Part shown: in pieces, positions 12,480 through 27,669 of the stretch
Position numbering within the stretch: the stretch's first letter is position 1
How the letters are laid out: every line of letters begins with the position of its first letter
Assembly (NCBI GenBank): GCA_938074535.1
Contig: CALJER010000021.1
Span: forward strand, 1 to 29,298
Reading direction: 5' to 3'
Length of the DNA stretch: 29,298 bases
Source: an uncultured archaeon
Lineage (GTDB): Archaea > Hadarchaeota > Hadarchaeia > Hadarchaeales > WYZ-LMO6
Made by a program: the position numbers and the translations under genes
The notes under the pieces: generated by a model
Databases searched by the model: none
Seen by the model: the letters and a program-made list of their open reading frames with translations, nothing else
Told to the model about the DNA's origin: nothing

Positions 12480-12498
12480 CGTCCTCTCTTCTCCTCCC

Positions 12499-12506
12499 AT
12501 AAAAAA
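12499..12506 (-). promoter_or_regulatory. Putative TATA box (TTTTTTAT) for the HdrD-like operon
   Basis: The only AT-rich tract nearby, 20-27 nt upstream of ATG 12479. Confidence 0.45.
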
Positions 12507-12678
12507 GCCGCGCCGGGGCACCGCTCGTTCCCGTCCGGGAGGAGGCGCGGGTGGCGGGCCTTCCTCCCTGGCCGGTCCTGAGGCCCGAGGGCGGCGGTGG
12601 CCCAGAAGGGGTGGAGGGGGCGGGAACACCCTCTGTGCGGGCCCCCAGCCCTTTAGCCTCCCCGGAACAGGAGGGAAG

Positions 12679-13833
12679 GTGGAGGACCTGAGGAAGGTGC
12701 TGGTGGTGGGGGTCAACACCAGGCCCGTGGTGAAGTCAGCCAGGGCTTTGGGCCTGAGGGTGGTGGCCGTGGATCGCTTCAGGGATGTGGACCTCTGCTC
12801 CCTGGCCGAGGACGTTCTTCCCCCTCCCCCCTCCTCCCCGGCGGAGAGGCTGGACTGGAAGGATCTGTGCCTCAGGGCCCTAGAGGAGCATGAGGTGGAC
12901 GCCGTGCTCTACACCTCCGGGATGGAACACCAGCGCGAGCTGCTGAAGGAGCTTGAGAGAAGGGGGCTGCTGGTGGGGAACCCATGGGAGCGGGTGAGGA
13001 GGGCCAGGAGGGAGCTCTTCTCCACCGCCTCCAGCCTGGGCCTTTCCTTCCCCCCTACGGAGGAGGCCAGGAGCCCGGAGGAGGCGGAGGAGAGGGCGGA
13101 GGAGCTCGGCTATCCCGTGGTGCTGAAGCCTCCGTCCGGCGGGGGAGGGAGGGGGATTGTCCTGGTGAAGTCGGGGGAGGAGGTGGAGGGGGGCTTCAGG
13201 CGGGCCTCTTCCTCCGGGAGGGTCCTGGTGCAGAAGTACGTGCGGGGCAGGAACGCCAGCGCCAGCCTGGTGTGCGGGAGGGGGGAGGCCGTCTGCTTGA
13301 CGGTGAACGAGCAGCTGATAGGGGATTCCTCCCTGGGCGCTCCAGGACCTTTCTCCTACTGCGGAGGGGTGGTTCCGCTGGAGGGGGGAAAGGAGGCGGA
13401 GAGGATAAGGGAAGGCGCCGAGGCCCTCTGCTCGGAGCTGGGGCTGGTGGGGAGCAACGGAGTGGACTTCGTGATCTCGGGGGGGGAGCCCTGGGTGGTG
13501 GAGGTGAACCCCAGGTTCCAGGGGACGCTGGAGCAGGTGGAGGGTGTGCTGGGGATAAACCTGGTGGAGGAGCACCTGAGGTGGTGCGGGGGGGGAGGGG
13601 GGAGATACGGGAAGCCCAGGGGGTGCTCCGTGAAGCTCGTCCTCTACGCCGGAAGGGAGCTCACGGCACCGGATCTGAGGAGGTTCCCCAACGCGGTGGA
13701 TCTCCCCTGGAGGGGACAGAGGGTGGGGAGGGGCCAGCCGGTCTGCAGCGTGCTGGAGTTCGCCCCCGGCAGGGAGAGGGCCATGGAAGGGGCGAGGGCA
13801 GCGGCGGCGGAGATCCTGCGCCGCCTGGGGTGA
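12679..13833 (+). CDS. ATP-grasp ligase (MJ0776/COG2232-like, C1-cofactor associated)
   Basis: KVLVVGVNTRPVVKSA..VDRFRDVDL, YPVVLKPPSGGGGRGI, VQKYVRG, TVNEQLIG, GSNGVDF and VEVNPRFQGT. GTG 12679 follows GGAGG. Confidence 0.85.
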   Translation: MEDLRKVLVVGVNTRPVVKSARALGLRVVAVDRFRDVDLCSLAEDVLPPPPSSPAERLDWKDLCLRALEEHEVDAVLYTSGMEHQRELLKELERRGLLVGNPWERVRRARRELFSTASSLGLSFPPTEEARSPEEAEERAEELGYPVVLKPPSGGGGRGIVLVKSGEEVEGGFRRASSSGRVLVQKYVRGRNASASLVCGRGEAVCLTVNEQLIGDSSLGAPGPFSYCGGVVPLEGGKEAERIREGAEALCSELGLVGSNGVDFVISGGEPWVVEVNPRFQGTLEQVEGVLGINLVEEHLRWCGGGGGRYGKPRGCSVKLVLYAGRELTAPDLRRFPNAVDLPWRGQRVGRGQPVCSVLEFAPGRERAMEGARAAAAEILRRLG

Positions 13834-14612: not shown

Positions 14613-15241
14613 TCCACCACCGGGATGATTTTGGTCCCCAACGTTTCCCCGCCCCTCAGGGCTTTCCCCAGGCCCTCCATGCCCCTTGCCCCCACCACCC
14701 AGCAGGTGATGGCCCACTTCTCCAGCAGGTCGGGGAGGAGGGGATCCACGACGGTGGTCCTCATCTCCCTCAGCTCCTTCGTGGTCAGGACCTTCCTCAG
14801 CCTTCCCCCCTCCCTTATCCCCTCCACCCCTTTCACCAGCACCAGGGTGCGGCACTCCACCTTCCCGCAGAGCCAGGCGGCGATGGAGTCGGAGGTGAGC
14901 CTCCAGGACTTCTCCAGCTTCTTTTCCTTCCTGAGCTCCAGGAAGGGCAGGAAAACGGTCTCCCCCTTCACCTCCTTGAGGGAGGAGGTGCACCTCCACT
15001 TCAGGAGCTCCCTCAGCAGAATCCCGTAGGCCTCCATGCCGAGGATGGCCATCCAGTGGGCGGCCTCCTCCGAGAACCCCAGCCTCCTCTGTAGCTCCCT
15101 CACGGTCTCCGTCATCCTGCCCCCTCCTGGGACCACGAGCAGGTCGTACTCCTCCGAGAGGGAGCGGAGGAGGGAGCAGATCCTCCTCAGCGCCTCCCCC
15201 TTCTCCTGCAGGCTTCCGCCCACCTTCACCACGGCGTCCGT
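14609..15241 (-). CDS. mfnE: Amino-acid-kinase-family protein, [5-(aminomethyl)furan-3-yl]methyl phosphate kinase
   Basis: VVKVGGSL, VPGGG, AHWMAILGME, SWRLTSDSIAAWL and LVKGVEGI, in the context of mfnB/D/F. Start is uncertain: ACG 15241 with an SD, or GTG 15232. Confidence 0.82.
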   Translation of the reverse strand, partial: TDAVVKVGGSLQEKGEALRRICSLLRSLSEEYDLLVVPGGGRMTETVRELQRRLGFSEEAAHWMAILGMEAYGILLRELLKWRCTSSLKEVKGETVFLPFLELRKEKKLEKSWRLTSDSIAAWLCGKVECRTLVLVKGVEGIREGGRLRKVLTTKELREMRTTVVDPLLPDLLEKWAITCWVVGARGMEGLGKALRGGETLGTKIIPVVE

Positions 15242-16236
15242 CCCACCGCCTCCCCCGCCAGTCTGCCCATGCAGAAGGCCGGCGTCATGAGGGCCGCCTC
15301 CTCCCCCCATATCCTCCCAAGGTCCACCACCCTTTTGAAACCTGCTTCCCCTGCGGCCTCCCTTCCCAGGATCTTCCTGCCCACTCCCGTCACCACGGCC
15401 GGGCAGCCCTCCAGCCCGTACCTTTCCGCCACCGCCCTCATCTTCCCCGCCACCCTCCTCACCTGCTCCCGGTGGAGGGCCCTGGCGCTTCTTCTGAGGA
15501 AGCCCTCCCCCACCTCCTCCGGGTCGGAGCAGAAGGCCCTGGCCAGCCTCCTCCTGCAGCTCTCCTCGTCCCTCCCCCTCCCGTCGGGGGTCTCGGAGGT
15601 GTACTCCCCAGGATGGAGCTTGCCCAGCAGGATGTAGACGTCCCCCATCACCGCAAAGTGCTCCGCCGCCACCCCCACCCCCTCCACCTCTCCCAGCACG
15701 CAGGGGACGGGGGTGCGCACCACCCCGGTGTACACGAGCTCCCCCCTCCTCAGGCGCTGGAAGTCCGTGCTCCCCAGGTTGGCCACCCTCCCCCCCACCA
15801 GGGGGATGAGGTCGGTGGTGGTGCTCCCCACATCCACCAGCAGGGAGTCGGGGAACTCCCTGGCCACCAGGAGCCCGCTGGCCACCCAGTTGGAGGCCGC
15901 CACGGAAAGGGGATCGGAAAGCACCTCCCTCATCCCCACCAGTTCACCGCGGAGGGTGAGAAAAAGAGCTTTTCCCCACACCTTCCGCACCTCCTTCACC
16001 AGCTCCCTCACCCCCTCCTCCCTCGTCCCGAACACGTCGGCCAGCTCCCCGGTCATCACCACCCCCACCCTTTCCGCCCCCCACCGCTTCAGCTCCCTCA
16101 GGGTGCTGCCCAGCCTTCCGCGTTCCTTCCAGAGGGGGAGGTAGCGGAGGAGGGAGGCTTCCACCCTCTCCCCCCTCAGGAGCACTGCCTTGGTGTGGGC
16201 CCCACCCAGGTCGAGGCCGAGAGAGGGCGTCCTCAC
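15226..16236 (-). CDS. mfnF: Methanofuran biosynthesis coupling enzyme (hydantoinase A/ASKHA-like, MJ0840 type)
   Basis: GLDLGGAHTK, YLPLWK, VVMTGELAD, AASNWVAS, DVGSTTTDLIP, GELVYTGVVRTP, AEHFA..DVY and TPDGRG. Confidence 0.9.
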   Translation of the reverse strand: MRTPSLGLDLGGAHTKAVLLRGERVEASLLRYLPLWKERGRLGSTLRELKRWGAERVGVVMTGELADVFGTREEGVRELVKEVRKVWGKALFLTLRGELVGMREVLSDPLSVAASNWVASGLLVAREFPDSLLVDVGSTTTDLIPLVGGRVANLGSTDFQRLRRGELVYTGVVRTPVPCVLGEVEGVGVAAEHFAVMGDVYILLGKLHPGEYTSETPDGRGRDEESCRRRLARAFCSDPEEVGEGFLRRSARALHREQVRRVAGKMRAVAERYGLEGCPAVVTGVGRKILGREAAGEAGFKRVVDLGRIWGEEAALMTPAFCMGRLAGEAVGRTPW

Positions 16237-16307
16237 AGCTCTGAGGGGGGAGGCTTAGGGGAAAACGCTTGTGGTGGGCTGATAGCGGAAGGGGCGGAGC
16301 CCCACCG

Positions 16308-16565
16308 ATGCTGTCGGAACTTCCGACGTGGAGCCGAAGGAGGGGCAGGGAAATCCTCAGGGTGGGGATGATCGCAGGGCTGGATGCCCTCGACCTCTGC
16401 GAACAGACGGCGGCCGCGGCGACCAGCGGGCCGGCGAGGCTGCTCGGCACAGCCGGGGAGGAAGGGACCCACCTCGGGGAGCTCCGGACCACGCCTGAGG
16501 AGGACCGGGAAGAGGTGGAGAAGGGCGGGGAGGAGGTGGAGGGGCTCAGGTCCTCCAAGCGCTGA
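16308..16565 (+). pseudogene. Degenerate encapsulin-associated ferritin-like (Flp/EncFtn-type) gene
   Basis: EILRVGMIAGLDALDLCEQ...EEGTHLGEL...EVEKGGEEVEGL follows the Flp pattern EILRxAIIAELDAINLYEQ...EEKxHVGEF...ELxxGxxEVxEL as I recall it, but with E>G and Y>C substitutions and shortened helices. It lies antisense within the mfn operon. Confidence 0.6.
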
Positions 16566-16569
16566 AACC

Positions 16570-17613
16570 TCACACCCCTGACCGCTCCCTCACCCTGGCC
16601 TCGGTTTCTTCTATCTTCCGGAGGGCCTCCTCCCTCTTTTTCCCCCAGCCCACCACCACCATCCTGCGGCCTTCCCCCGTGTCCACGGGGGGGGTGAGGA
16701 GGCCCTCCAGCTCCTCCATTCCCACCGCCCCTTCGGGGGGAAGGGGCGGGGCCTCCAGGATCCTCACGCAGGCCTCCCCCCTCAGCCCGGTTTTCCCCCT
16801 CCCCTCCACCAGCATCTCGGCCAGGTTCCCCTTCAGGATTCTCGCCAGGGCGAGGAAGGAAGTGGTGGGGCGGGGGTTGAGCTCTATGAAGTAGGGTTCC
16901 TTCCCCACCACCAGATCCGCCCCGCAGAGCCCCCTGGCCCCCAGCACCCTGGCCCCGCGCTCGGCCAGCTCCCTGCACTTCCTGAAGAGGGGAGGGGGCA
17001 GGTGGAGGGGCACGTCGCTTCCCAGGTAGCGGATGCTTCTCCCGAGGGAAAGCACCTGCCGGTTGAGGGAGAGGAAGGTGATTTTCTTCCCGGCCAGGAG
17101 GCAGCAGCTCGCGTGGATTCCCTCCACGTACCGCTGGAAGAACTCGCCCCTCCTTCTTCTCCTCCCGAACCTGATCCCCTCTCCCCCCGCCCCCCACCTG
17201 GGCTTCACCAGCCACTTCCCGGAGCCGGGTGGGGCGAGCCTGGAGGGGGGGAGGTTGACTTCCCCCCTCAGCGCGAGGTAGGTGAGCCACTTGTCCCCCG
17301 CCCTCTCGGCGCCCTCCCGGCCCGTGCCCAGCACCCTCACCCCCTTTCTCTCGAGCCGGTCGGTGAGCTCCACCAGCTCCCTGGGAGGGGCGATCACGAG
17401 GGCGGCCTCCGGAAGGGGAGAGGGGAGGGAGCGGTCCACCTCCCCGGGGAGGAACCCCTCGAGCCACCGGAGGCGCGGGTGGAGGAGGGAGAGGGGTTTG
17501 AAGCCGGCCTCCTCGAACTGGAGGGCCATCGTTCTGAGGAGGGCAAAGCCTTCGGGGAGGAGGGAAGGATATTTCCCCGAGAAGGAAGCGAACTCCAGCA
17601 GGAGAACCTTCAT
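16570..17613 (-). CDS. mfnD: Tyramine--L-glutamate ligase (ATP-grasp)
   Basis: MKVLLLEFA..SLLPEG..L, ALVIAP, DKWLTYLAL, VKPRWGAGGEG, LSLNRQ and IELNPRPTTS. Translationally coupled to mfnB (ATGA). Confidence 0.85.
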   Translation of the reverse strand: MKVLLLEFASFSGKYPSLLPEGFALLRTMALQFEEAGFKPLSLLHPRLRWLEGFLPGEVDRSLPSPLPEAALVIAPPRELVELTDRLERKGVRVLGTGREGAERAGDKWLTYLALRGEVNLPPSRLAPPGSGKWLVKPRWGAGGEGIRFGRRRRRGEFFQRYVEGIHASCCLLAGKKITFLSLNRQVLSLGRSIRYLGSDVPLHLPPPLFRKCRELAERGARVLGARGLCGADLVVGKEPYFIELNPRPTTSFLALARILKGNLAEMLVEGRGKTGLRGEACVRILEAPPLPPEGAVGMEELEGLLTPPVDTGEGRRMVVVGWGKKREEALRKIEETEARVRERSGV

Positions 17614-18332
17614 CGTCCGGGTACTTCGGTCCCGGCCCCGAGCACCTCCTTAAGCCTCCTCACCAGTTCCCCGGAAAGCCTGCCCTCCCTGCCCGAGGGG
17701 CAGACCGCTCCCCTGACCCCCAGGATATCCGCCAGTCCCACGAGCTCAGCGAGCTCTTTTTCCCCCAGCGAGCCCGCAAGGGCCACCTTCAGTCCCAGCG
17801 AGTGGGCTTTTCTGCAAAACTCCCTCAGACGGGGAGGAGGAAGGAAGGAGGTGAGGGGCTCACCGTCCTTCACCGCCGTGTCCAGCATGACCACCCTCAC
17901 CCCGGTCTCGGCGGCCAGTTCCGGCAGCAGAAAGGGTTCGAGGGTTCCCACCCTCTCGAAATCACCGTAGGCGCATGCCACCGCCTCTCCCCTTCCCCAG
18001 AAGCTCACAGCCCCCGCCACCGCCCTCAGCAGGGAAAGGGCCTCCCCCCTCGTCCTGGGGCCCCTGAGTCCCACCTTGACGAAGCTTGCCCCGGCCTGCA
18101 GCGCTCCCAGGGCGGCCAGGGAGGCGCTCCCCGGGAGGGAGGGAAAATCGCCTATCGCGGCACTCACGGGGATGGAGGGGGGGAGGAGGCTCCTCACCTC
18201 CGAGATCACCCAGGGGAAGCCGGCGCCCAGGGAGCCCTCGAGGGGGTTCTTCACATCCACGATGTCCGCTCCCCCCTCGGCGGCTTCCAAGGCCTCTCTC
18301 CCGTCCCTCACGCTTACGAGCAGGAGGGTCAT
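17610..18332 (-). CDS. mfnB: (5-formylfuran-3-yl)methyl phosphate synthase
   Basis: LLVSV...EA..GGADIVDVKNPLEGSLGA, VSAAIGD, FVKVGL, MLDTAVKDG, ALAGSL and DILGVRGAVC. Confidence 0.95.
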   Translation of the reverse strand: MTLLLVSVRDGREALEAAEGGADIVDVKNPLEGSLGAGFPWVISEVRSLLPPSIPVSAAIGDFPSLPGSASLAALGALQAGASFVKVGLRGPRTRGEALSLLRAVAGAVSFWGRGEAVACAYGDFERVGTLEPFLLPELAAETGVRVVMLDTAVKDGEPLTSFLPPPRLREFCRKAHSLGLKVALAGSLGEKELAELVGLADILGVRGAVCPSGREGRLSGELVRRLKEVLGAGTEVPGR

Positions 18333-18360
18333 CCTCCCACCATTAGAAAGGGGGTTCCCC

Positions 18361-18366
18361 TATAAA
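18361..18366 (-). promoter_or_regulatory. Putative TATA box (TTTATA) of the mfnB operon
   Basis: Canonical archaeal TATA about 29-34 nt upstream of the mfnB ATG, with a GGTGGGAGG SD in between. Confidence 0.55.
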
Positions 18367-18406
18367 CGGTTCGAGGCCAGGACCGGGGGAGTCTTCCGGG
18401 GCTTGC

Positions 18407-19918
18407 TCAGAAGAGTTCTCCCTCCTGGACGTAGCTCCTGCCCGTCCTCAGGGCTATCTCCGCCTTCTGAAGCTCCCTTCCCAGGTAGGCGGCGTGGGAG
18501 GGCTCCTCCACCACACCCTCCTCCAGGATCCTCCTGCAGAGACCCTCCGCGCTCTTCCCCCTGAACACCAGCTCCGCCCTTCCACCCCTGTAGAGCACGG
18601 CCCTTATCTCCCCCCCCTCCACCCTTATCCGGAAGAAGCTTCCCTCCAGCCTGCTCACGCCCTGGGCGGGCTTCTCCTCCAGGATCCTGGCGCGGGTCTC
18701 CCCGGAGGGATCGTAAGGTTCCTCCTTCCTCCTCTTCTCCTTCAGGAGGAGGAGGTCCAGCCCCAGGTCCTTGGGCGCGGAGCCCCTCTCGCTGGCCAGG
18801 AGCATCATGTCCCTCGCCCTCCTCAGCTCCCCCACGCTCCCCCTGGTCTTGTCGCTGGCCTCCACCGTAAGGAAGAGGCTCACCCCCGCCTCCATTCCCA
18901 TCCCCGCCAGAAGGGCCATCATCCCCGGGGAGTCGGCATCGCACAGCTCCACCACGTTCCCCACCCCCATCAGGAGGGGGAGGTCGGGCCTCTCCTCCCT
19001 CACCTCCCCCAGCAGCCTCACGGAGTTCAGGAAACCCAGGTTGAGGGGCTCCAGGAGGGGATCCGCCACCACCTTCCTGAACCCCCTCTCCTCCGCCTCC
19101 TCCACCAGCCTCAGCAGCTCCCTCTTCCTCCTACCCCTTTCCACGCGGGGGGGGATGAGCACCACGGCCAGATCCGTCCTGTCGAACTTCCTCAGGGAGG
19201 AGCGGTCCAGGCTCGCGATGAGGTCCGCCCCTTCTTCCGCCGCCCTGGCCATCTCCCTCGGGTTGAGGGTGTCGATGCTCACCGGGACCCCGAACTCGTG
19301 CTTGAGGAGGGAGACCAGCTCCCCCGCCCTCTCCGGGAACTCCCTTCCCGCCACCATTCCCACATCCAGGATTTCCGCCCCCTCCTCCAGGTACCTCCTG
19401 GCCCTCTCCACCACCTCCTCGTCGGAGAGGAGGGGAGCATCGGGGATCTCCGCCATCACCCTGGGAGGGAATCCCCCGCCCACCCCCAGCCTGCCCAGCA
19501 GGAAGGCCCCCTTTCCCATCCTTCTCGCCCTGCTCTCCACCTCCCTCAGGAGCCTCTCCGCCCTCCTCCTCGTCTCCTCCTTCAGGAGCTCGCACGCGGG
19601 GACTTCCTTGGAGAGCTCCACCTCCCCCAGACGCTCCAGCACCGGAGGGAGATCCGCCGCGTGCTTGGGCCCCCTGTAGGTGGGAACCCCCACCTTTCTC
19701 TCCACCTCGGAGGGGTCGAACCTCACCAGGCCCGGGAGGAGGATGAGGTCGTAGCCCTTCACCCCCCTCTTCTCCAGCTCCCTCACCGCCAGCGAGGGGG
19801 TGAGGAAGGTGGCAACGGGGACGGGGGCCGCCACCACCTCCGCTTCCACCCCCTTCACCCTGGAGTACTTCTTCACCAGGGGAAAGGCCAGCCTCCCGGT
19901 GAGGAGGAGGACCCTCAT
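18407..19918 (-). CDS. Dihydropteroate synthase-like protein (MJ0107 type) with C-terminal DUF4346-like domain
   Basis: MRVLLLTGRLA, VATFLTP, LILLPGL, GPKHAADL, MAEIPDAP, GAEILDVG, PVSIDT, GVGNVVELCDADSPG and terminal HAAYLGRELQKAEIALRTGRSYVQE. ATG 19918 overlaps the upstream stop. Confidence 0.88.
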   Translation of the reverse strand: MRVLLLTGRLAFPLVKKYSRVKGVEAEVVAAPVPVATFLTPSLAVRELEKRGVKGYDLILLPGLVRFDPSEVERKVGVPTYRGPKHAADLPPVLERLGEVELSKEVPACELLKEETRRRAERLLREVESRARRMGKGAFLLGRLGVGGGFPPRVMAEIPDAPLLSDEEVVERARRYLEEGAEILDVGMVAGREFPERAGELVSLLKHEFGVPVSIDTLNPREMARAAEEGADLIASLDRSSLRKFDRTDLAVVLIPPRVERGRRKRELLRLVEEAEERGFRKVVADPLLEPLNLGFLNSVRLLGEVREERPDLPLLMGVGNVVELCDADSPGMMALLAGMGMEAGVSLFLTVEASDKTRGSVGELRRARDMMLLASERGSAPKDLGLDLLLLKEKRRKEEPYDPSGETRARILEEKPAQGVSRLEGSFFRIRVEGGEIRAVLYRGGRAELVFRGKSAEGLCRRILEEGVVEEPSHAAYLGRELQKAEIALRTGRSYVQEGELF

Positions 19919-20532
19919 GCGCTCATCCTCTTCTCCACGGCCTCCAGGAGTTCTCTCGCCGTCTCGGCTTCCCTGGAGGAGGGGGAGAGACGGAGGCACC
20001 CCTCGACCTGCCTCCTCAGCTCCTCCATCATCCTCCCCACCTTCAGTCCCCTTTTCCTGGCGACCAGGATCCTGCTGGCCAGCACGGCCGCCTCGAGCAG
20101 GAAGAACTCGGACCTCAGGAGGGGTTTTACGTGGGGGTCGACCGCCTCCACCTTCCTCACCTCGCAGGTGATTCTGAAGGCCAGGGAGGTTCCGAGTTCG
20201 TCCTCGACTTCTTCCCCCCTCATCCCCTTCACCCTGGGCACCCTTACCGTGGAGGAGGGCAGGAACTCCAGCTTGGGAGGAGGGAGGAGGTTTTTGAGCG
20301 CCAGCCTCACCAGCAGGTTCACGTCGTCTGTCAGGTTGAGCACACCCTCCCCCACCCTCCTGAGGTTGGAGAGGGAGGTGGAGGGGTGGAAGAGCCTCAT
20401 CTCCACCTCCTCCCCCTTCAGCCAGGCGCCCACCGTGGCGGCGTGGGGTGAGGAGTCGGGGTTGAGGGTGGAGAGGATCACCTCACCTGGCGACTCCTTC
20501 AGACCCAGCTCCCTCGGGGAGCTCATCAACAA
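19915..20532 (-). CDS. DUF447 family protein (split-barrel, H4MPT-cluster associated)
   Basis: EVILSTLNPDSSPHAATVG...F.PSTSLSNL...GVLNLTDD...LLEAAVLASR. Confidence 0.75.
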   Translation of the reverse strand: MLMSSPRELGLKESPGEVILSTLNPDSSPHAATVGAWLKGEEVEMRLFHPSTSLSNLRRVGEGVLNLTDDVNLLVRLALKNLLPPPKLEFLPSSTVRVPRVKGMRGEEVEDELGTSLAFRITCEVRKVEAVDPHVKPLLRSEFFLLEAAVLASRILVARKRGLKVGRMMEELRRQVEGCLRLSPSSREAETARELLEAVEKRMSA

Positions 20533-20580
20533 GGCTCCTCCTTTCCCTATTTAGCCCAGGTCCCTGAGAACGGATTTGGA

Positions 20581-21519
20581 TCAGGGTCTTATCCCCTCCA
20601 GCAGAAGGGCCAGCATCCAGGAGGAGGCGACGAGGTCGGCGGTGGTCCCCGGATTCACATCCTCCCTTTTGAACTCCTCGTCCAGCTCACCCACCATCCT
20701 CCTCCCCCTTTCCGTGAGCATCCCCCCCTCCTCCAGCACCTTCCTGGCCTTGCGCGAGGCCTCCTCCGCCTTTTCCCTCCCCTTGGTGCGAGCCACGAAG
20801 GTGTCCGGGCGGAAGGCCAGGAGCTCCAGGAAGGTCTGGACGGTGGCGGTGTTGACGTGGTTCGTCCTCCTGTAGAGCTGGGTGAGGGTGGGATAACCGA
20901 ACTCGAAGGTCACGGAGTAATCCGTCACCCACTCCCTGGCCACATCGTCCCATCCCGAGCAAATCCTCATGACCTCGTAGGCGGAGAGCCCCCTCTTCCT
21001 CAGCTCTTCCTGGGAGCGCGGATCGTTCACGTCCAGGTCCTCCAGCCTTCCCAGCCCGGCGGGCTCCGCGAGGAGGACGGCCCGGTAGAGCCCCACGGCG
21101 TCCTCTGGGGTGGTGGCCCTGAGGAGCTCGGAGAGGCGCCGGCGGAGGGGTTCTTTCCCCACCGCGCCCTCTTCGGCCAGCACCCAGCCGGCGGCCGCCG
21201 TCAGGGGTACCAGCAGGAGGATCGTCCCCAGGTTGGTGTTCCCGTCCCTCTGCCACCTCCTGGTCTCCCTCATGGCTTCCTCCATGATCGCCCCCAGGCC
21301 CGCCTCTCCCTTCCGCAGCTCGCCCTTTCCCACCGAGAAGCCCCTGCGGGCGGCCAGGAGCATGGAGGGGCCTATGGCGATGGTGCTGGCCACGAAGTGC
21401 TCGAAGGTGGCGTCCGGGAAGTCGGAGGTGCGGTGCACGTTTCCGGGCTTGGGGTGGCCGCACACCTCCAGGGCGGAGGAGAGCTGGGCCATCCTGGCCA
21501 AATCCTCCGGCGTGAGCAT
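20581..21519 (-). CDS. citG: CitG-family (triphosphoribosyl-dephospho-CoA synthase-like) protein, archaeal C1-cluster type
   Basis: ALEVCGHPKPGNVHR..DFPD..FEHF, NTNLGTILLLVPL, PDTFVAR..G and NPGTTADLVAS. ATG 21519 with TTTTAT at 21542-21547. Confidence 0.85.
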   Translation of the reverse strand: MLTPEDLARMAQLSSALEVCGHPKPGNVHRTSDFPDATFEHFVASTIAIGPSMLLAARRGFSVGKGELRKGEAGLGAIMEEAMRETRRWQRDGNTNLGTILLLVPLTAAAGWVLAEEGAVGKEPLRRRLSELLRATTPEDAVGLYRAVLLAEPAGLGRLEDLDVNDPRSQEELRKRGLSAYEVMRICSGWDDVAREWVTDYSVTFEFGYPTLTQLYRRTNHVNTATVQTFLELLAFRPDTFVARTKGREKAEEASRKARKVLEEGGMLTERGRRMVGELDEEFKREDVNPGTTADLVASSWMLALLLEGIRP

Positions 21520-21560
21520 CTCCGATTTCTCTCCTCTCCCGATAAAAGGGGTTTCCCGCT

Positions 21561-21821
21561 TCAGAGTTTGCTGAGGACCTCCAGGGCCTTTGAAAGCTTG
21601 GGCTTGGCCACCCTGTAGTAGGTCTTTCTTCCCTCCTTCCTGCTGGAGACCAGACCGCATTTCTTCATCAGCTTCAGGTGGTGGGAGACCAGCGGCTGTT
21701 TTTTCCCGAGTTCCTTCACCAGCTCGCACACGCACTTTTCCCCTTCATCCAGAAGGAGTAGGATCTTGTACCTAGTTTCGTCGCTTAGGCATTTCAGCAC
21801 TTTAATTCCTCGAGTACCCAT
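21561..21821 (-). CDS. arsR: ArsR/SmtB metalloregulator with alpha3 CVC site
   Basis: LKCLSDETRYKIL, EKCVCEL, QPLVSHHLKLM..CGLV and RKEGRKTYY. It lies directly downstream of acr3. Confidence 0.9.
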   Translation of the reverse strand: MGTRGIKVLKCLSDETRYKILLLLDEGEKCVCELVKELGKKQPLVSHHLKLMKKCGLVSSRKEGRKTYYRVAKPKLSKALEVLSKL

Positions 21822-21836
21822 CTTGTTCCCTCCACC

Positions 21837-22868
21837 TCAATCGAAAAAATCCCTTGTTTTTTTGCACAGGAACACCAGGAAGAGCATGAGTGGTACCTCG
21901 GTCAACACCCCCACCACCGTGGCCAAGGCAGCCCCGGATTCCACCCCGAAAAGGGAGATGGCCACAGCGATGGCCACCTCGAAGTGGTTGCTGCCCGCTA
22001 TGATGGCCGCCGGGGCGGCATCCTCATATCCCAGCCGCATGGACCTGGCGACCATGTAGGTGATACCGAAGACCAGGAGGATGTTGGCGAAGATGCCGGC
22101 CGTGATCATTCCTATGATACCAGGGATTTCGGTGATCAGGTGCCCCTGGTAGGTGAAGAGGATCACCAGCGTGATGAGAAGGGCTGCGATGGCCACCCTC
22201 CCCAGCGCGGGCACCAGTTTTGCGTTGAGCCACCTCTCACCCTTTCGCTCCAGAACCTTTTGCCTGGTGTAGTATCCGGCGATCAGGGGGGTGCAGATAT
22301 AGAACGTCACCGAGAGGGCTATGGTCTCCCAGGGCACCCTTATTCCGGAAACTCCCAGGAGGAAGGTGGCGAGGGGGGCGTAGAGGAAGACCATGGTGAG
22401 GGAGTTGATGGCGGTCATCACCAGGGTGTGTGCCATGTTCCCCCTGGCCAGGTAGCTCCAAACCAGCACCATCGCCGTGCAGGGAGCCACCCCCAGCAGG
22501 ATCATCCCGGCCCTGTACTGCTCGATCTGCTCGGGGGAGAGGAAGCCTGAAAAAAGGACCGCGAGGAAGAACCAGGAGAAGAAGGCCATGGTGAAGGGCT
22601 TGACGGCCCAGTTCATGAAGAGGGTGAGTCCCACGGGTCTGGGAGATCTGCTGGCTTTCTTGATTTCCTCGAAGCTTATCTGGACCATGATGGGGTAGAT
22701 CATGGCGAAGAGACAGATGGCGATGGGCACGGAGATATGGGCCACCTCCAGTTTCCCCAGGGCGTTTGAGAGCCCAGGAAGGGATCTTCCCAGGAGGATT
22801 CCCGCGAGGATGCAGAGGGCCACCCACACCGAGAGGTACTTCTCCCAGAGGCCCAGTCCCCTTTTCAC
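21837..22868 (-). CDS. acr3: Acr3-family arsenite efflux transporter
   Basis: EKYLSVWV, MIYPIMVQI, NWAVKPFTM, AGMILLGVAPCTAMVLVWS, SNHFEVAIAVAISLFG and ALATVVGVLTEVPLML, with about 10 TM helices. GTG 22868 overlaps the ferredoxin stop. Confidence 0.95.
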   Translation of the reverse strand: MKRGLGLWEKYLSVWVALCILAGILLGRSLPGLSNALGKLEVAHISVPIAICLFAMIYPIMVQISFEEIKKASRSPRPVGLTLFMNWAVKPFTMAFFSWFFLAVLFSGFLSPEQIEQYRAGMILLGVAPCTAMVLVWSYLARGNMAHTLVMTAINSLTMVFLYAPLATFLLGVSGIRVPWETIALSVTFYICTPLIAGYYTRQKVLERKGERWLNAKLVPALGRVAIAALLITLVILFTYQGHLITEIPGIIGMITAGIFANILLVFGITYMVARSMRLGYEDAAPAAIIAGSNHFEVAIAVAISLFGVESGAALATVVGVLTEVPLMLFLVFLCKKTRDFFD

Positions 22869-23125
22869 CTGCGGGCTTCCAGCTCCCTCATCAGCTTTCT
22901 TATCTCCGCGAGCGGTGGGAAGGAGATGGCCTCGGAGGGACACAGCTTGGCGCAGGAGCTGCACCCCACCACACACTCGTAGGGATGCTCCACCTTCGGC
23001 TTCCCCTCCTCCTCGTCCCAGCCGTAGACCCCGTGGGGACAGGATTCGAAACAGGTGCGGCATCCCGCGCACTTCTGGAGATCCACCCTGGGGAACCATG
23101 GTATTTTGTCCCTCGGCAGGTTCAT
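22865..23125 (-). CDS. 2[4Fe-4S] ferredoxin (86 aa) in the ars operon
   Basis: IPWFPRVD..KCAGCRTCFESCPHGVY and YECVVGCSSCAKLCPSEAISFP. Coupled on both sides (ATGA and GTGA overlaps). Confidence 0.9.
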   Translation of the reverse strand: MNLPRDKIPWFPRVDLQKCAGCRTCFESCPHGVYGWDEEEGKPKVEHPYECVVGCSSCAKLCPSEAISFPPLAEIRKLMRELEARR

Positions 23126-23481
23126 CCTTTCAATCCCTGCACGGCTTTCTTCACCCTTTCCGCAGCCTCCTCGGTCGAGAGGTTCCTGAGGTCGAGGGGC
23201 ACCGCCTGTGAGTCGAAGTCCCCTCCCGCTTCTTTGAAGGCCTGCGAGAACATTTTCTTCTGCATCCTCGGGTCGCACCCCCCTATCACGTATTTCTCCC
23301 CGGGCTTGACCAGGTCCCTGAGGAAGCGGTCGCCGTCTTCCACGCAGAGCTGGGGGTGCACCAGGGCGTAGTCCACCTCCAGCTGGTTCCTCACGTAGTT
23401 GATGAGCTTCCAGAGCTCCAGGTTCTTGAAGCCGGGGCACTCCCCCGTGCAGATGCACATCAGGAATTTGGGGTTGGGCAT
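23122..23481 (-). CDS. Stand-alone HdrA N-terminal-domain-like Cys protein (about 119 aa)
   Basis: FLMCICTGEC...HPQLC..DG...YVIGGCDPRMQKKMF...AG...LDLRN parallels the HdrA N-terminus (VCHCG...xxLCSxxG...VVAACSPRMHxxxF...AG...ANIRE). Start ATG 23481 or 23490. Confidence 0.7.
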   Translation of the reverse strand: MPNPKFLMCICTGECPGFKNLELWKLINYVRNQLEVDYALVHPQLCVEDGDRFLRDLVKPGEKYVIGGCDPRMQKKMFSQAFKEAGGDFDSQAVPLDLRNLSTEEAAERVKKAVQGLKG

Positions 23482-23488
23482 CTCAATC

Positions 23489-23554
23489 ATAAATGTATAT
23501 TCATATAAAAGGTTTTGGGAGGTGGGAGGTGGTCAAGGCGGACAACTCTTATAT
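23489..23554. promoter_or_regulatory. Divergent promoter region with two TATA boxes and a candidate ArsR operator
   Basis: AT-rich island. TTTTATAT (minus, 23503-23510) lies 22-29 nt before ATG 23481. TTATAT (plus, 23549-23554) lies 24-29 nt before ATG 23578. Imperfect palindrome ATAAATGTATATTCAT at 23489-23504. Confidence 0.55.
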
Positions 23555-23577
23555 TCTCAAGGTGGCCAGGGGGCGTG

Positions 23578-24477
23578 ATGGTGGGGGTGAGGGTGAGGGA
23601 GGAGAGGTGCACGGGGTGCGGCAGATGTGTGGAGGTCTGCCCTGCCGGGGTGTTCGGGCTGGAGGGGGAGGGTGGGAGGAAGGTCGCGAGGGTGGCGAGG
23701 GCGGAGGAGTGCTGTGCCTGCAGGGCGTGCGAGCTGAAGTGTCCCGAGAGGGCCATCGAGGTGGAGGGGTACCAGCTTCTCAAGGTGGATCCCCCTCCGG
23801 ACTATCCTCCTGAGGAAGGACGCTACCTCAGGGGCAACGACTACTCACCTGTCGCGGTCTGTGCCATCCTGGACACCTACGACTTCCGGATACCACCGGA
23901 GCTCCTGAAGCTCGTGGAGGTGGGTGTGGAGGCGGGAGCCGCCCTGGCGGGAACCCTTCAGACAGAGAACATAGGGATAGAGAAGCTGGTGGCCAACGTG
24001 GTGGCCAATCCCAACCTGCGCTACCTGGTTCTGTGCTGGAGGGAGTCCCAGGGACATCTTCCCGCCCATTCCCTCCTTCAGCTGGTGGAGAGGGGCGTGG
24101 CCAGCGACAAGCGCAGGACCATTCTCGGGTCGAAGGCCCCCGCCCCCTATCTCCCCAACCTCCCCCTCCGCTCCATCGAGAGGTTCAGGAGGCAGATCAC
24201 CATCGTGAACCTGATCTCGGAAGAGGAGCCCAAGAGGGGGATGGACCCCGAGAACGTGAAGAAGGCCGTCCGGGCCTGCATCCAGGAGAAGCCGGTGGAG
24301 TTCATGGGGTACACCCTGTGGGATCCTGGCGCCTGGCCGGAGCCACCCATCTGTGAGAAGCTCTCCATGAGGGTGAAGGAGCCCTGGAGGCCGGAGCTCA
24401 CCAGGGAGGAGGCCGACGCCCTGGAGCGCATCAGGAGGGCGGCGGAGAGGATTGGGAAGTCCCGTCGCTCCGAGTAG
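23578..24477 (+). CDS. Ferredoxin::MtrA-like soluble corrinoid protein fusion (299 aa)
   Basis: N-terminal CTGCGRCVEVCP and CCACRACELKCP, then MtrA motifs YPPEEGRY..GNDYSPVAV, GAALAG..QTENIGIEKLVANVVANPNLRYLVLC..ESQGH (Co-ligand His position), PYLPNL...IERFRRQI and DPGA. No C-terminal TM anchor. Confidence 0.88.
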   Translation: MVGVRVREERCTGCGRCVEVCPAGVFGLEGEGGRKVARVARAEECCACRACELKCPERAIEVEGYQLLKVDPPPDYPPEEGRYLRGNDYSPVAVCAILDTYDFRIPPELLKLVEVGVEAGAALAGTLQTENIGIEKLVANVVANPNLRYLVLCWRESQGHLPAHSLLQLVERGVASDKRRTILGSKAPAPYLPNLPLRSIERFRRQITIVNLISEEEPKRGMDPENVKKAVRACIQEKPVEFMGYTLWDPGAWPEPPICEKLSMRVKEPWRPELTREEADALERIRRAAERIGKSRRSE

Positions 24478-25051
24478 CCCCTTCTTGCTCCTCCGGTGAG
24501 GGGGGCTTCTCTTCCCTCACCTCCTTCCCCAGCAGGAGGGTGAGGAGGGTTTGCTGGTCGATCTCAGCCCTGGTCCTCCACCCCACGTAGAGGGTGCCCT
24601 GCTCGTCCTCCGAGAGGTAGCCCATCCTGATGAACCTCTCCAGCGTGGGCTCCACCCTGAACTTGGGGAACTTCTCCTCCAGGATGCTCTCCACCTCCCT
24701 GAAGGGGGCCTTTCCCCCCTTGGCCAGCAGGTGGGCCAGGGCTACGGTGAGCATGGCCATGTCGTCTATCCTCCACCCGAAGGTCCTGGCTTCCGTGAGG
24801 GTGGGATGACCCTTCAGGGTGAGGAAGTACCTGTCGCTCTCGGGCTCTCCTCCCTCGCTCACCCTCTTGATGGTGAGGCCCAGCTTCCCCACCTCCTCCT
24901 CCAGCACCTTCAGCACATGCTCGTACTCCCTCCCCAGGGCCCTCTTCAGCTCCCAGCCCCTGGCGCCAGGCTGGGCGTGGTGCTTGAAAAAGAGGAGCTG
25001 GGCCGCCCTGGCCAGCTTCTCCCTCAGCTCAGCCTCTCCTCTCTCCTCCAC
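24431..25051 (-). CDS. ScpB/kite-like tandem winged-helix protein
   Basis: 206 aa, two WH-like halves, C-terminal LERFIRMGYL...LYVGWRTRAEID (reminiscent of the Nse3/MAGE WGPRAxxE). Third gene of the smc-kleisin operon. Confidence 0.7.
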   Translation of the reverse strand: MEERGEAELREKLARAAQLLFFKHHAQPGARGWELKRALGREYEHVLKVLEEEVGKLGLTIKRVSEGGEPESDRYFLTLKGHPTLTEARTFGWRIDDMAMLTVALAHLLAKGGKAPFREVESILEEKFPKFRVEPTLERFIRMGYLSEDEQGTLYVGWRTRAEIDQQTLLTLLLGKEVREEKPPSPEEQEGATRSDGTSQSSPPPS

Positions 25052-25820
25052 GCTTCCTCCTCCACTTCTCCCTCGAGATGGAAACTGGCACCGACATGCC
25101 TTCCCCCCTGCGCTGCGGGGAGGAACAGGGGAAGAGGAGCATGTCGTCCTCCAGAGGCTTCAGCTCCATTCCCGCGTATCCGTAGCTCACCAGGAAGCTC
25201 ACCAGCCAGGCCTTTCTCACGGTCTCCTCGAAGGTGGGGGCGGAGATGAACTTCCAGTACGAGATCCCCCCGTCCCTGGCCCTCCTCTTCAGCTCGTCCC
25301 AAAGCTCCGTGAGCAGCCTGTGGAACTCCTCCCTGCTCACGATCCCCATCCTGGAGAGCTCCTCCAGCGGGAGCTCGCCTCCGCCCTCCCCGCCCCCCTC
25401 CAGCTCCCTCCTCCTCTCCTCCAGGGGGGGAAGGTTGGTCCAGTACTCCTTTGCCTCCGAAAGGGCCGGGGGGGAGAGGGCCTCCAGCTCCACCGTCGGG
25501 TGCCAGGCCTTCGCCAGCACCTCCGCCAGGTCCCTCGGGGACATCACCTGCACCTTCAGGGAAATCAGGAGCGGATCGAGGTACAGGAGGGAGGAGCGGT
25601 GCTTGATCCACTCCCCCTGCTGGAGGACCACCTCTGCGAGACCCACCAGCGCCCGCAGGTCCAGGTAGAGGTCCTGGAGATCCCTGAGCCTGGGGAGGAG
25701 CTCCCTCAGCCTCCGCAGGAAGTCGCCCACCTGCACCTCGAAGGGGTCCAGCTCGTGCTTCCTCACGCTCTCGCAGAGGTCTATCACCCTCAGCAGGAGT
25801 TCCTTCCTCTCTCTACGCAC
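25029..25820 (-). CDS. ScpA/kleisin-like protein
   Basis: N-terminal ELDPFEVQV (ScpA LDPWDIDI-like) and C-terminal WH ISYWKFI...TVRKAWLVSFLVSYGY..L...EDDMLL. Overlaps the smc stop. Confidence 0.7.
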   Translation of the reverse strand: MRRERKELLLRVIDLCESVRKHELDPFEVQVGDFLRRLRELLPRLRDLQDLYLDLRALVGLAEVVLQQGEWIKHRSSLLYLDPLLISLKVQVMSPRDLAEVLAKAWHPTVELEALSPPALSEAKEYWTNLPPLEERRRELEGGGEGGGELPLEELSRMGIVSREEFHRLLTELWDELKRRARDGGISYWKFISAPTFEETVRKAWLVSFLVSYGYAGMELKPLEDDMLLFPCSSPQRRGEGMSVPVSISREKWRRKRGGERRG

Positions 25821-27669
25821 GCGTTACCACCCTCACCTGGGAGGTTCCCCCCACGTTCTGAACCATCACGATGTTGGGCACCTCCTCCACTCCCAGCAGG
25901 TAACCTGGCGTGATCACCAGGTACTGAACCCTCTCCCCCCTCGTGGCCTCTATGATGGAGCGGAAGATGGCCTCCCGGTTGCGGGGATCCAGATGGGTCT
26001 CGAACTCGTCTATGGCCCTGAGGGGCGACCTGATCTGCTTCTGGAGGGCCAGCAGGAAGAGCATGATGGCCGTGGTTCTCTCACCCCCGCTCTGGGTGTA
26101 GGCGTCGAGCAGCTGGGGGGAGGTACCCCTGAAGCCCACGTAAAGCTCCAGCCCGGCCCCCTCTATGTCCTCCGGATTCACCAGCTTCAGGTCCCCTCCG
26201 GCGTTCACCCTTTCCAGCAGCTTCACGTATTCTTCCCTCACCTGGCCCAGGAGTTTCTCCACCTCCCTCCTCCACCGCCTCTTCCTCTCCTCCACCTCCT
26301 CCAGCGCCCTCCTCCTGTTCTCCTCGGCCACCCTCGCCCTCTCCTTCAGCTCCTCCATGGTGGCCCGGTAGTTGAGGTACATCTGCTCCACCTCGGGCGA
26401 GACCTCCCCCAGCGTGCTCAGGTGGGCCCCCACCACCTTCAGCTCCTCCAGCACCTCCTGGGGTTTCCTCTTCGTCTCCACCCTTCCTCCCGCACCCTCG
26501 GCCTCCTTCCTCAGAACTTCCAGCTCCCTCCTGGTCCTCCTGGCCTCCCCCGAGAGGGAGTCCATCTCCCGGCGCAGGAGGTCCTGCCTCAGCTCCAGCA
26601 GGGCCTCCCTCACCCTGGTTTCCACGTATGCCTTCCTCTTTTCCGAGAGCTCCCCCTTGAGCCTGGCTATCCTCCCCCTCGCCTCCCCTATCTTGGCCTC
26701 AACCCTTTCCCGGTCGTAGCCCGGCAGGGAAAGGGCTCCACCCAGGCCTGAGAGCTTCCCGGACAAGGAGAGATACACCTCCCCCTCCGCCTTCAGCCTC
26801 TCCCCGGCGATCAGCTCCTCGTAGGAGGCCTCCAGCTCGAACTCCAGCCTGCCGACCTCGCCTTCAAGCTCCCCCCCTCTCCTCCTCTCCCTCTCCGCTT
26901 CCGTCCTCAGCTCCGCGAGCTGGTTCTGGAGCTCCTCCATCTCCGCCTCCAGCTCTCCGAGCTCCTCCTCCTTCCTGAGGTACCTGGACCACCGGTACTC
27001 GGCCTCCAGCTCCACCCTCCTCCTCTCCAGCTCCCTCTTCCTCTTCAGCCTCTGGTACTCCCCCTCCCAGTACCTGAGGGTCTCCTCCGCCTTCTCCAGC
27101 AGCCTCTTCACGGCCTCCTCCTCGCTCAGGGTGTGGGAGAGCTTCTGCATGGCGCTCAGGATGTTTTCCCTGTACTCGTGCAGTCCCACCGCTTCCTCCA
27201 CCAGCTTGAGCCTCTCCCTCGTGTCGATGGCCCCGAAGGTGTCCACCATGTTCTGGTGCATGATGATGAGCATGTTGTCGGGATTCAGGGAGAGGTGCTT
27301 CAGGAACCTCAGCAGCTCCCCCTTGGTGATGCTCCTGGAGTTTATCTCGTGCCAGTAGGTCCCGTCCCTGCTGAGGTACCGGGAGAGCACCACCGTGTCC
27401 GAGCTGAAGCCGGGGAGGGGTCTTTTCCCGTCCAGGGGTGAGTTGTCGAAGACCACGCTGACCCTGGCCAGGTCCTTCCCCCTCTGGATGAGGTCGCTGA
27501 GCCTCCTGGACCTCTCGGTGTAGGTCTGCCCGAGGGCCACGGACAGCCCCAGCAGGATGGAGGACTTCCCAGCCCCGTTGGGGCCGCACACGAGGTTCAG
27601 TCCCTGCTTGAGGGGAATCCGGCTGTAGGAGTGGCTCATGAAGTTCTCCAGGATGAGCTCCGAGATCGT
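25813..27669 (-). CDS. Short SMC-related ATPase (SMC5/6-like, archaea-specific ClsN/Sph/arcadin-4 class)
   Basis: ISELILENFMSH, Walker A GPNGAGKSS, Q-loop IMHQN, long coiled coil, signature QSGGERTT, Walker B RAIDEF and D-loop HLDPRN. About 618 aa. The conserved first strand lies upstream of ATG 27639 and has no ATG/GTG/TTG in frame, so ACG 27669 is proposed. Confidence 0.88.
   Translation of the reverse strand, partial: TISELILENFMSHSYSRIPLKQGLNLVCGPNGAGKSSILLGLSVALGQTYTERSRRLSDLIQRGKDLARVSVVFDNSPLDGKRPLPGFSSDTVVLSRYLSRDGTYWHEINSRSITKGELLRFLKHLSLNPDNMLIIMHQNMVDTFGAIDTRERLKLVEEAVGLHEYRENILSAMQKLSHTLSEEEAVKRLLEKAEETLRYWEGEYQRLKRKRELERRRVELEAEYRWSRYLRKEEELGELEAEMEELQNQLAELRTEAERERRRGGELEGEVGRLEFELEASYEELIAGERLKAEGEVYLSLSGKLSGLGGALSLPGYDRERVEAKIGEARGRIARLKGELSEKRKAYVETRVREALLELRQDLLRREMDSLSGEARRTRRELEVLRKEAEGAGGRVETKRKPQEVLEELKVVGAHLSTLGEVSPEVEQMYLNYRATMEELKERARVAEENRRRALEEVEERKRRWRREVEKLLGQVREEYVKLLERVNAGGDLKLVNPEDIEGAGLELYVGFRGTSPQLLDAYTQSGGERTTAIMLFLLALQKQIRSPLRAIDEFETHLDPRNREAIFRSIIEATRGERVQYLVITPGYLLGVEEVPNIVMVQNVGGTSQVRVVTRA

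Follow-up and report, generated by a model that had tools for sequence, protein, structure and literature searches.

A ferredoxin-fused MtrA-like protein in an arsenic-resistance locus of a Hadarchaeales archaeon and its recurrent linkage to ars genes

The DNA analysed here, contig CALJER010000021.1 of assembly GCA_938074535.1 (29,298 nucleotides, hereafter the window; contig C21 in our numbering), comes from a Hadarchaeales genome of 1.2 Mb that is 93.6% complete. It harbors at 21561-24477 an arsenic-resistance (ars) locus in which a gene for an MtrA-like protein with a fused ferredoxin domain, here called MtrAL, faces away from a group of four genes, p122, fdx84, acr3 and arsR (Table 1). All five genes are present and placed as the original prediction for this DNA had stated. 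The four leftward genes are tightly packed: the stop codon of p122 overlaps the ATG of fdx84 as ATGA, the stop codon of fdx84 overlaps the GTG that opens the Acr3 homology as GTGA, and 15 nt separate the acr3 stop from the arsR start, which is preceded by GGAGG. The two overlaps and the short gap therefore indicate that p122-fdx84-acr3-arsR form one compact operon. The AT-rich divergent promoter region between this operon and MtrAL had been predicted to span about 95 bp; the low GC content was borne out, while the length has to be corrected to 87 bp. The GC content of the spacer is 47%, with 31% in the first 35 bp, against 65.5% in the window as a whole, and the spacer includes one of the two lowest-GC 35-bp stretches of the window. 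Both TATA-like elements in the spacer lie about 25-33 nt from one start codon each and are kept in the related loci L003, L004 and L118, so that they may be read as back-to-back archaeal promoters of near-leaderless transcripts. The island as a whole has 60% GC versus 64-67% in its flanks. As had been noted before, no other mtr gene, arsC or arsM is found within the window.

Table 1. Positions of the genes, domains and control region of the ars locus in the window
Feature	Position	Strand	Description
arsR	21561-21821	-	86-aa ArsR/SmtB repressor; last gene of the leftward operon
acr3	21837-22868	-	Arsenite efflux permease; GTG at 22868 is the likely start
fdx84	22865-23125	-	86-aa 2x[4Fe-4S]-type ferredoxin with eight Cys
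p122	23122-23490	-	HdrA N-terminal-domain-like Fe-S protein; first gene of the leftward operon
Divergent control region	23491-23577	none	87 bp with two TATA-like elements; presumed ArsR target
Ferredoxin::MtrA-like gene (MtrAL)	23578-24477	+	299 aa, ATG at 23578; PF04208 and Fer4 families
Fusion ferredoxin domain	23578-23775	+	N-terminal 2x[4Fe-4S], residues 1-66; Fer4, Fer4_9 and Fer4_7 matches
Fusion MtrA-like cobamide domain and soluble C-terminal extension	23776-24477	+	Pfam match at about 23785-24294; no transmembrane helix

The fusion protein carries the MtrA family signature PF04208 with 125.6 bits (cut-off 25) and passes the subfamily model NF002126 (166.2 bits versus 161), but misses the equivalog model TIGR01111 (116.2 bits versus 249.15). 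Its residues 67-242 align with the cobalamin-bound MtrA homologue 5LAA (E 1.3e-32), placing His160 on His84 and Glu130 on Glu54. In the part of the structural report available to us, His84 is described as the lower cobalt ligand and Glu54 as its hydrogen-bond partner, and every protein of the MtrA fold that has been characterised is a methyl carrier (PMC4915002). All 82 members of the MtrAL clade have His160 and Cys234, and an alignment of 24 archaeal homologues shows Glu130 in at least 90% of them. The maximum 19-residue hydropathy of MtrAL is 1.37, compared with 2.18-2.71 (near residues 219-227) in four canonical MtrA proteins. The prediction of a soluble MtrA-fold protein with an intact cobalt-ligand histidine is thus upheld: there is no anchor, the histidine is in register with that of 5LAA, and no Mtr complex is encoded.

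Judged from its sequence, MtrAL is not a canonical MtrA and stands outside any Mtr complex. It shares with MtrA of the MtrA-H complex and with the cytoplasmic homologues (5LAA, 5L8X, 8Q3V) the PF04208 family, the His that ligates the cobalt and the Glu to which this His is linked. It differs from canonical MtrA by its separate long-branch clade, an 11-residue insertion, the N-terminal ferredoxin fusion and a different soluble C-terminal extension that replaces the membrane anchor. Additionally, the source genome has neither MtrH (no PF02007 match in the 93.6%-complete genome) nor another Mtr-type MtrA gene, the fusion gene being the sole match in a PF04208 scan of the whole genome. CobS and CbiB were not found in the genome either, yet it has six B12-binding-domain matches and encodes a 224-aa B12-binding protein away from this locus; the organism probably imports cobamides. 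Most likely, MtrAL holds such a cobamide in the His-on mode. An AlphaFold2 model of the whole fusion has a mean predicted local distance difference test (pLDDT) score of 76, with values below 50 in the linker (residues 65-86) and in residues 260-273. Two candidate features of the protein were rejected. The C-terminal extension is not a DUF4346 domain like that of a neighbouring protein described below (hhalign probability 0.3%, no PF14251 match), and a three-Cys arsenite site was dismissed, since only Cys234 is invariant, position 153 being Cys in 57% of the members and position 259 most commonly Ser (43%).

The closest database copy of the fusion, with 93% identity, belongs to a Candidatus Hadarchaeales archaeon, and fused forms of 54-93% identity occur in Bathyarchaeia, Thorarchaeota, other Asgard groups and Nitrososphaerota. 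The examined loci also include many bacteria, among them Chloroflexota, Desulfobacterota and Acidobacteriota. The original prediction had called for placing the protein in an MtrA/MtxA tree, and there MtrAL forms its own clade apart from both: in the maximum-likelihood tree, a branch of length 1.42 with support 100/99 separates the 82 MtrAL rows from 8 canonical, MtxA-like and third-paralogue rows (the 8 outgroup sequences come from five methanogen or anaerobic methanotrophic (ANME) genomes; the short fragment L033 was left out). The clade is present in 1 of 61 Methanosarcinaceae genomes. Two genomes of the same genus as the source keep just a C-terminal remnant of MtrAL, and one of them retains acr3-arsR beside it. 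A plasmid search found no close MtrAL. It did bring up the Planococcus plasmid pA30H1, where a 459-aa protein (L198:5440-6819) combines an MtrA domain (128 bits) with a C-terminal DUF4346; its gene is the last in an operon with an ArsR/SmtB regulator, a small cation-transporter gene and a heavy-metal P-type ATPase. This operon of an aerobic Firmicute is a second, distant link of the MtrA fold to metal resistance.

A scan with one genome per species recovered 319 genomes with an MtrAL relative, and the neighbourhoods were counted in the best 80 of these loci, many of which are short contigs. At least one of Acr3, ArsP, ArsM, ArsC, ArsD or ArsF lies within 7 kb of MtrAL in 30 of the 80 loci, or in 32 if ArsR is counted too. 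By family, ArsR is found in 24 loci (CxC in 26 of 28 proteins, CVC in 21) and Acr3 in 19 (SBF match of the representative), followed by a PF03773 ArsP_1-type permease in 16 (by Pfam only, with the representative below every NCBIfam cut-off) and by the Pfam domains Thioredoxin_3 in 15 and DGC in 9. ArsM-type proteins occur in 9 loci (two representatives reach 332 and 349 bits versus a cut-off of 263; a third, truncated one has 222). Three further families are present in 5 loci each: low-molecular-weight (LMW) type ArsC, named from the sequence of one cluster member, ArsD-like proteins (Pfam 27.6 versus 27, NCBIfam below cut-off) and the ArsF family (82 bits versus 60). The predicted association of MtrAL homologues with ars genes thus stood up to the neighbourhood test, both in the ars structural genes and in the CxC motif of the neighbouring ArsR proteins.

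Acr3 is the commonest immediate neighbour of MtrAL: it lies no more than 400 bp away in 12 loci, 10 of them with both genes on the same strand, whereas ArsM, ArsC, ArsP and ArsE-like genes are each found this close and in the same orientation in 2-3 loci. Five genomes of 1.2-3.8 Mb were checked for further Acr3 copies, and in all five the sole Acr3 above cut-off adjoins MtrAL; with a single Acr3 per genome, we estimate the chance of such an adjacency at about 1% or less per genome. When the ars context is mapped on the tree, at least 14 label changes are needed, 10 of which are forced by well-supported branches, and the context occurs in most deep subclades and, as judged from record titles, in about ten phyla.

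Several other observations were made in these loci. In the ANME-1-type loci L036, L038 and L044, MtrAL is part of large ars islands together with ArsM, two types of permease and ABC transporters, and the gene immediately preceding it encodes a DUF169 protein (157.9 bits); in L036 MtrAL occurs twice. Repeated members of ars-type islands (L024, L042, L075, L096, L150, L157, L173, L177) are GcvH-like, lipoate-ligase-like and DGC-domain genes, which may have decoy or repair functions, given that lipoyl dithiols are among the classic targets of arsenite. In the Thorarchaeota-type loci L025, L027, L028 and L035, which have no ars genes in reach, the next gene downstream of ferredoxin::MtrAL is of the glyoxalase/vicinal-oxygen-chelate (VOC) family (PF00903, 62 bits). 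This superfamily includes the aerobic C-As lyase ArsI; the Thorarchaeota-type representative has no match to any ArsI model. Finally, L042 carries acr3 and arsR about 4-5 kb from two tandem MtrAL copies, and its genome is one of those of a preprint on Asgard archaea (10.1101/2023.11.21.568159).

The arsR-acr3 core of the window is of the classical kind. ArsR matches HTH_5 with 68.5 bits and the metalloregulator model NF033788 with 98 bits (cut-off 55), and the CVC motif read in its translation shows that the CxC metalloid site is present. Acr3 reaches 363.6 bits with the equivalog TIGR00832 (cut-off 282.8) and 152.1 bits with SBF, and it is 86-88% identical to the copies in sister genomes. As in classical ars operons (arsR-acr3, with arsC, arsM, arsP and arsD), one operon thus combines an Acr3 that passes the equivalog model with an ArsR of the CVC type, and related MtrAL loci add ArsM, ArsC, ArsD, ArsF-like and ArsP_1-type permease genes. 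The difference lies in the two extra modules without an assigned ars function, MtrAL and the p122-ferredoxin pair, and in the genome, which is without arsM and without a glutaredoxin (Grx) type arsC: in the whole genome, at its 93.6% completeness, no Grx-type ArsC was found and no ArsM match reached the model cut-off. An LMW-phosphatase-type ArsC-like gene is present on another contig of the same genome.

The first of these two extra modules consists of p122 and fdx84. The ferredoxin has two cluster-type motifs and Fer4 family matches; among 14 aligned homologues seven of its eight cysteines are invariant and the remaining one is present in at least 90%. For p122 there is no Pfam or NCBIfam match, and its relatives amount to only 106 representative clusters (E <= 1e-3; 1.84 billion representatives searched), all of 41-187 aa. 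However, a profile of 26 homologues aligns p122 to residues 4-128 of HdrA with its four conserved cysteines (Cys12, Cys14, Cys49 and Cys72) in register, the matches being 9sfi_A (E 2.5e-7, residues 4-105), 7bkb_A (3.1e-5) and 5odc_A (1.8e-3). In agreement, the AlphaFold2 model of p122 (pLDDT 96) has HdrA chains as all of its top 7 Foldseek matches in the PDB, with E values from 1.6e-5 (7bkb_A) to 1.6e-4 and query TM-scores of 0.61-0.67; chains of MvhD match more weakly. The label "HdrA-N-like" that p122 had been given is therefore correct. In HdrA the N-terminal domain binds a [4Fe-4S] cluster. Contrastingly to HdrA, p122 is a free-standing protein of 122 aa that lacks the flavin-binding thioredoxin-reductase-like core and the ferredoxin domains.

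A profile of a narrower p122 alignment recovered at least 570 metagenome loci, and the company of p122 was counted in the best 80 of them. An fdx84 homologue accompanies it in 75 of these 80 loci, ArsR in 50, Thioredoxin_3 in 40, a permease in 21, DGC in 17, Acr3 in 13, ArsC in 6 and MtrAL in 5. Conversely, the p122-ferredoxin pair was seen in 4 of the 80 MtrAL loci. One metagenome locus, L118, with a p122 that is 84% identical, repeats the five-gene layout of the window, whereas in two same-genus sister genomes acr3-arsR faces away from an MtrAL of 92-93% identity, and both p122 and fdx84 are missing. The pair is an independent cassette linked to ars genes, and the notion that it is dedicated to MtrAL is ruled out by these counts and by its absence from the sister genomes. 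For the same reasons the original prediction of five genes working as one dedicated system has to be abandoned. Since the pair and MtrAL mostly occur apart and the sister species lack the pair, the locus is better seen as a mosaic in which two accessory modules accompany a core.

Two side observations concern this cassette. Within the spacers of the sister loci (L003:1340-1530 and L004), a short sequence looks like the opening codons of p122 and by eye apparently runs in frame into acr3; it would suggest either a loss of p122-fdx84 there or an insertion here through promoter-proximal recombination. In three Bathyarchaeia loci (L026, L030, L060) a radical SAM/SPASM protein of about 490 aa occurs together with MtrAL and p122, and in L030 its gene immediately precedes MtrAL. 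The protein scores best with the NirJ2 and AhbD models, without reaching the cut-off of either, and a 48% identical copy is found in the source genome at C16:4030-5409.

Based on gene content and conserved residues, we tentatively favour an interpretation in which a cobamide-auxotrophic Hadarchaeales archaeon possesses an ArsR-controlled arsenic-resistance locus of three separable modules, and in which MtrAL may perform a cobamide reaction on an arsenical, preferably a methyl transfer between cobalt and arsenic. Binding of As(III) to the CVC-type ArsR would open both divergent promoters, and Acr3 would then export As(III). The p122-fdx84 genes, which travel independently with ars islands, could encode a low-potential electron-transfer pair. 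The third module would be the soluble ferredoxin::MtrA-like protein, which recurs in ars islands of anaerobic archaea and bacteria and would not require oxygen for its reaction: Co(I) would take the methyl group from a methylated arsenical, As(III) would be released for Acr3, and the fused ferredoxin would return cobalt to Co(I). In the reverse direction the same Co-As methyl transfer would amount to arsenic methylation without S-adenosylmethionine (SAM). We favour methyl transfer because the known MtrA-fold proteins are methyl carriers with His-on cobalt, and As(III) fits as the product because the As(III) pump Acr3 is the commonest neighbour. Methylcobalamin is able to methylate arsenite chemically. 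A bolder version, namely that MtrAL is the missing oxygen-independent arsenic methyl-transfer enzyme, a cobamide protein in the ars islands of about ten phyla that demethylates methylated arsenicals or methylates arsenic without SAM and passes As(III) on to Acr3, and that the p122-ferredoxin pair constitutes a second undescribed ars function supplying low-potential electrons, seems to us somewhat unlikely.

Two chemical details of the original prediction are not supported. Methyl-tetrahydromethanopterin (methyl-H4MPT) had been named as a possible methyl donor; however, the genome has no MtrH and many clade members are bacterial. The sole hint in its favour is given by nearby one-carbon (C1) cofactor genes, which are found near MtrAL in two Hydrothermarchaeota-type loci as well. 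Against the proposed independence from SAM stands the SAM-dependent arsM-type gene found within 7 kb of MtrAL in 9 of the 80 loci, where two of three representatives reach the ArsM cut-off.

A number of facts weigh against a methyl transfer to or from arsenic by MtrAL. As many as 50 of the 80 loci have no ars structural gene in reach; 24 of 28 rows of one Desulfobacterota subclade and five of five Thorarchaeota-type rows are among them. The counts themselves come from the best 80 loci only, with open reading frames called crudely, clustered by BLAST and cleared of antisense shadow clusters, and each neighbour cluster was named from one to three representatives. No gene for a substrate:corrinoid or corrinoid:acceptor methyltransferase recurs beside MtrAL in the 80 loci, thus a methyl-transfer cycle would have to run without its usual partners. 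The bacterial copies mostly lack the ferredoxin domain that would recharge the cobalt. With Cys234 as the only invariant cysteine, MtrAL is devoid of a three-thiol As(III) site, which is typical of ArsM, ArsD and ArsR. Moreover, a C1-cofactor biosynthesis gene lies near MtrAL in the window and in L022, L039 and L041, that is in two archaeal lineages, and therefore MtrAL would also fit into ordinary C1 metabolism.

One would argue that such a protein is a cobamide/Fe-S reductase, in which electrons from the fused ferredoxin domain or from a separate ferredoxin pass to cobalt and reduce the arsenical. The substrates would be, for example, pentavalent methylated or aromatic arsenicals, or As(V), and either Acr3 or the ArsP-type permease would carry the trivalent product out of the cell. 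The archaeal fusion indeed joins 2[4Fe-4S] clusters to a corrinoid, the cofactor set of reductive dehalogenases and QueG, and p122-fdx84 electron-transfer cassettes occur in the same islands. The lack of a recurrent partner methyltransferase and the single invariant Cys agree with a reductase as well. In Chloroflexota islands, genes similar to ArsF and ArsE, which act on aromatic arsenicals, lie directly upstream of MtrAL. However, there is no homology to RdhA or QueG, as the Pfam matches are only to MtrA and Fer4, and most bacterial members are without the ferredoxin domain. In two Chloroflexota loci an LMW-type arsC directly upstream of MtrAL means that As(V) reduction is already covered there. 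Also the characterised members of the fold, as far as the available part of the structural report goes, are all methyl carriers (PMC4915002). We consider this main rival unlikely. It could also be that MtrAL does not act on the arsenical at all and is non-catalytic in arsenic stress, holding or protecting a cobamide, sensing, or assisting Acr3 as an accessory partner. Acr3 as the commonest immediate neighbour in 12 loci, the want of a thiol-rich substrate site, and the GcvH, lipoate-ligase and DGC genes of the islands, which resemble the protection or replacement of arsenite-sensitive functions, would be expected of such a protein. The invariance of His160 in all 82 members, the strong conservation of Glu130 and the fused electron-input domain of the archaeal proteins argue instead for redox-active catalysis, and no precedent for such a non-catalytic protein was found. 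Thus a non-catalytic role is improbable.

The same has to be said, with a similar degree of doubt, of the view that MtrAL is an ordinary corrinoid protein of C1 metabolism or methylotrophy whose adjacency to ars genes reflects co-travel on mobile accessory islands. The majority of loci without ars structural genes would be readily explained in this way. A dihydropteroate-synthase-like (DHPS-like) gene of the H4MPT cluster is found beside or near MtrAL in L039, L041, L022 and the window, and the genome encodes the above-mentioned 224-aa B12-binding protein elsewhere. The Asgard preprint, in its available part, treats such proteins as Mtr-related methyltransferases of unclear activity (10.1101/2023.11.21.568159). 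Contrastingly, co-travel has to account for a linkage found repeatedly in about ten phyla, where well-supported branches of the tree force at least 10 changes of context, for the close and mostly same-strand position of Acr3 (12 loci, 10 of them on the same strand), and for the ArsM, ArsC, ArsP and ArsE-like genes placed similarly in 2-3 loci each. Additionally, MtrH was not found in the genome, the 80 loci have no recurrent cluster of methylotrophic methyltransferases, and the clade is rare in Methanosarcinaceae, with its single occurrence in 61 genomes.

The original prediction had drawn an analogy to the mercury-methylating pair HgcA/HgcB, and it turned out to be weak. What is shared is only the cofactor set, a corrinoid protein plus a 2[4Fe-4S] ferredoxin, together with ArsR-family regulators nearby. 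The corrinoid part of MtrAL has no homology to HgcA and no membrane domain. The HgcAB-like model NF043039 gives 47.5 bits versus a cut-off of 285, with the match confined to the ferredoxin part, and the HgcB model NF040864 gives 47.1 bits for the fusion and 42.7 bits for fdx84 versus a cut-off of 99. Furthermore, HgcA uses Cys as the cobalt ligand, whereas the ligand in MtrAL is His. The methylotroph corrinoid systems of the MtaABC type with a reductive activase share a His-on corrinoid carrier, and a reactivation of cobalt by Fe-S clusters is plausible for MtrAL. However, the corrinoid fold of MtrAL is of the MtrA type and not PF02310, and neither a substrate-specific or acceptor methyltransferase nor an ATP-dependent activase is encoded near it.

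The remainder of the window contains further genes of interest. A run of C1-cofactor biosynthesis genes (15226-21735, minus strand) directly adjoins arsR and encodes a hydantoinase-like protein, an ATP-grasp protein, 4-(hydroxymethyl)-2-furancarboxaldehyde-phosphate (4-HFC-P) synthase (237.9 bits), a DHPS-like protein, a DUF447 protein and a CitG-like protein. The DHPS-like protein has the domains DUF6513, Pterin_bind and DUF4346, and it is a protein of this family that adjoins MtrAL in L039 and L041. On the other side, three genes (24431-27639, minus strand) are convergent to MtrAL, the first of which overlaps the MtrAL 3' end by 47 bp; they encode a conserved 206-aa protein without family, a 263-aa protein with a faint kleisin-type match and a 608-aa protein with coiled-coil-like repeats visible in the translation. 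At 10187-12719 (minus strand) the gene of an HdrD-like protein (CCG domain and Fer4) overlaps by 38 bp that of a 373-aa protein with a two-cluster ferredoxin domain at its C-terminus, and at 47-5092 (plus strand) lies the gene of a surface-type protein, at least 1681 aa long, in which Ig-like domains (Big_13, 84.5 bits) are repeated.

The formation and removal of methylated arsenic in flooded soils controls rice straighthead disease and the arsenic content of the grain. In the available parts of two reports on paddy soils, the mechanism of anaerobic arsenic demethylation is presented as unresolved and a corrinoid methyl transfer is suspected (PMC10579292; 10.64898/2026.08.27.747368), and the Asgard preprint likewise, in its available part, handles MtrA-like genes as possible methyl-metabolism genes whose activity is unclear (10.1101/2023.11.21.568159). 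A search of the full-text literature, with subscription journals and supplementary files outside it, found no paper tying MtrA-like or p122-type proteins to ars genes. The link of MtrAL to ars genes is supported by our data and appears to be undescribed. A cobamide protein inside the ars islands of many anaerobes is a concrete candidate gene for anaerobic demethylation. The MtrA-like genes of Asgard archaea, Bathyarchaeia and Hadarchaeota are now read as hints of methyl metabolism, and for a part of the clade a role in arsenic stress fits the context better.

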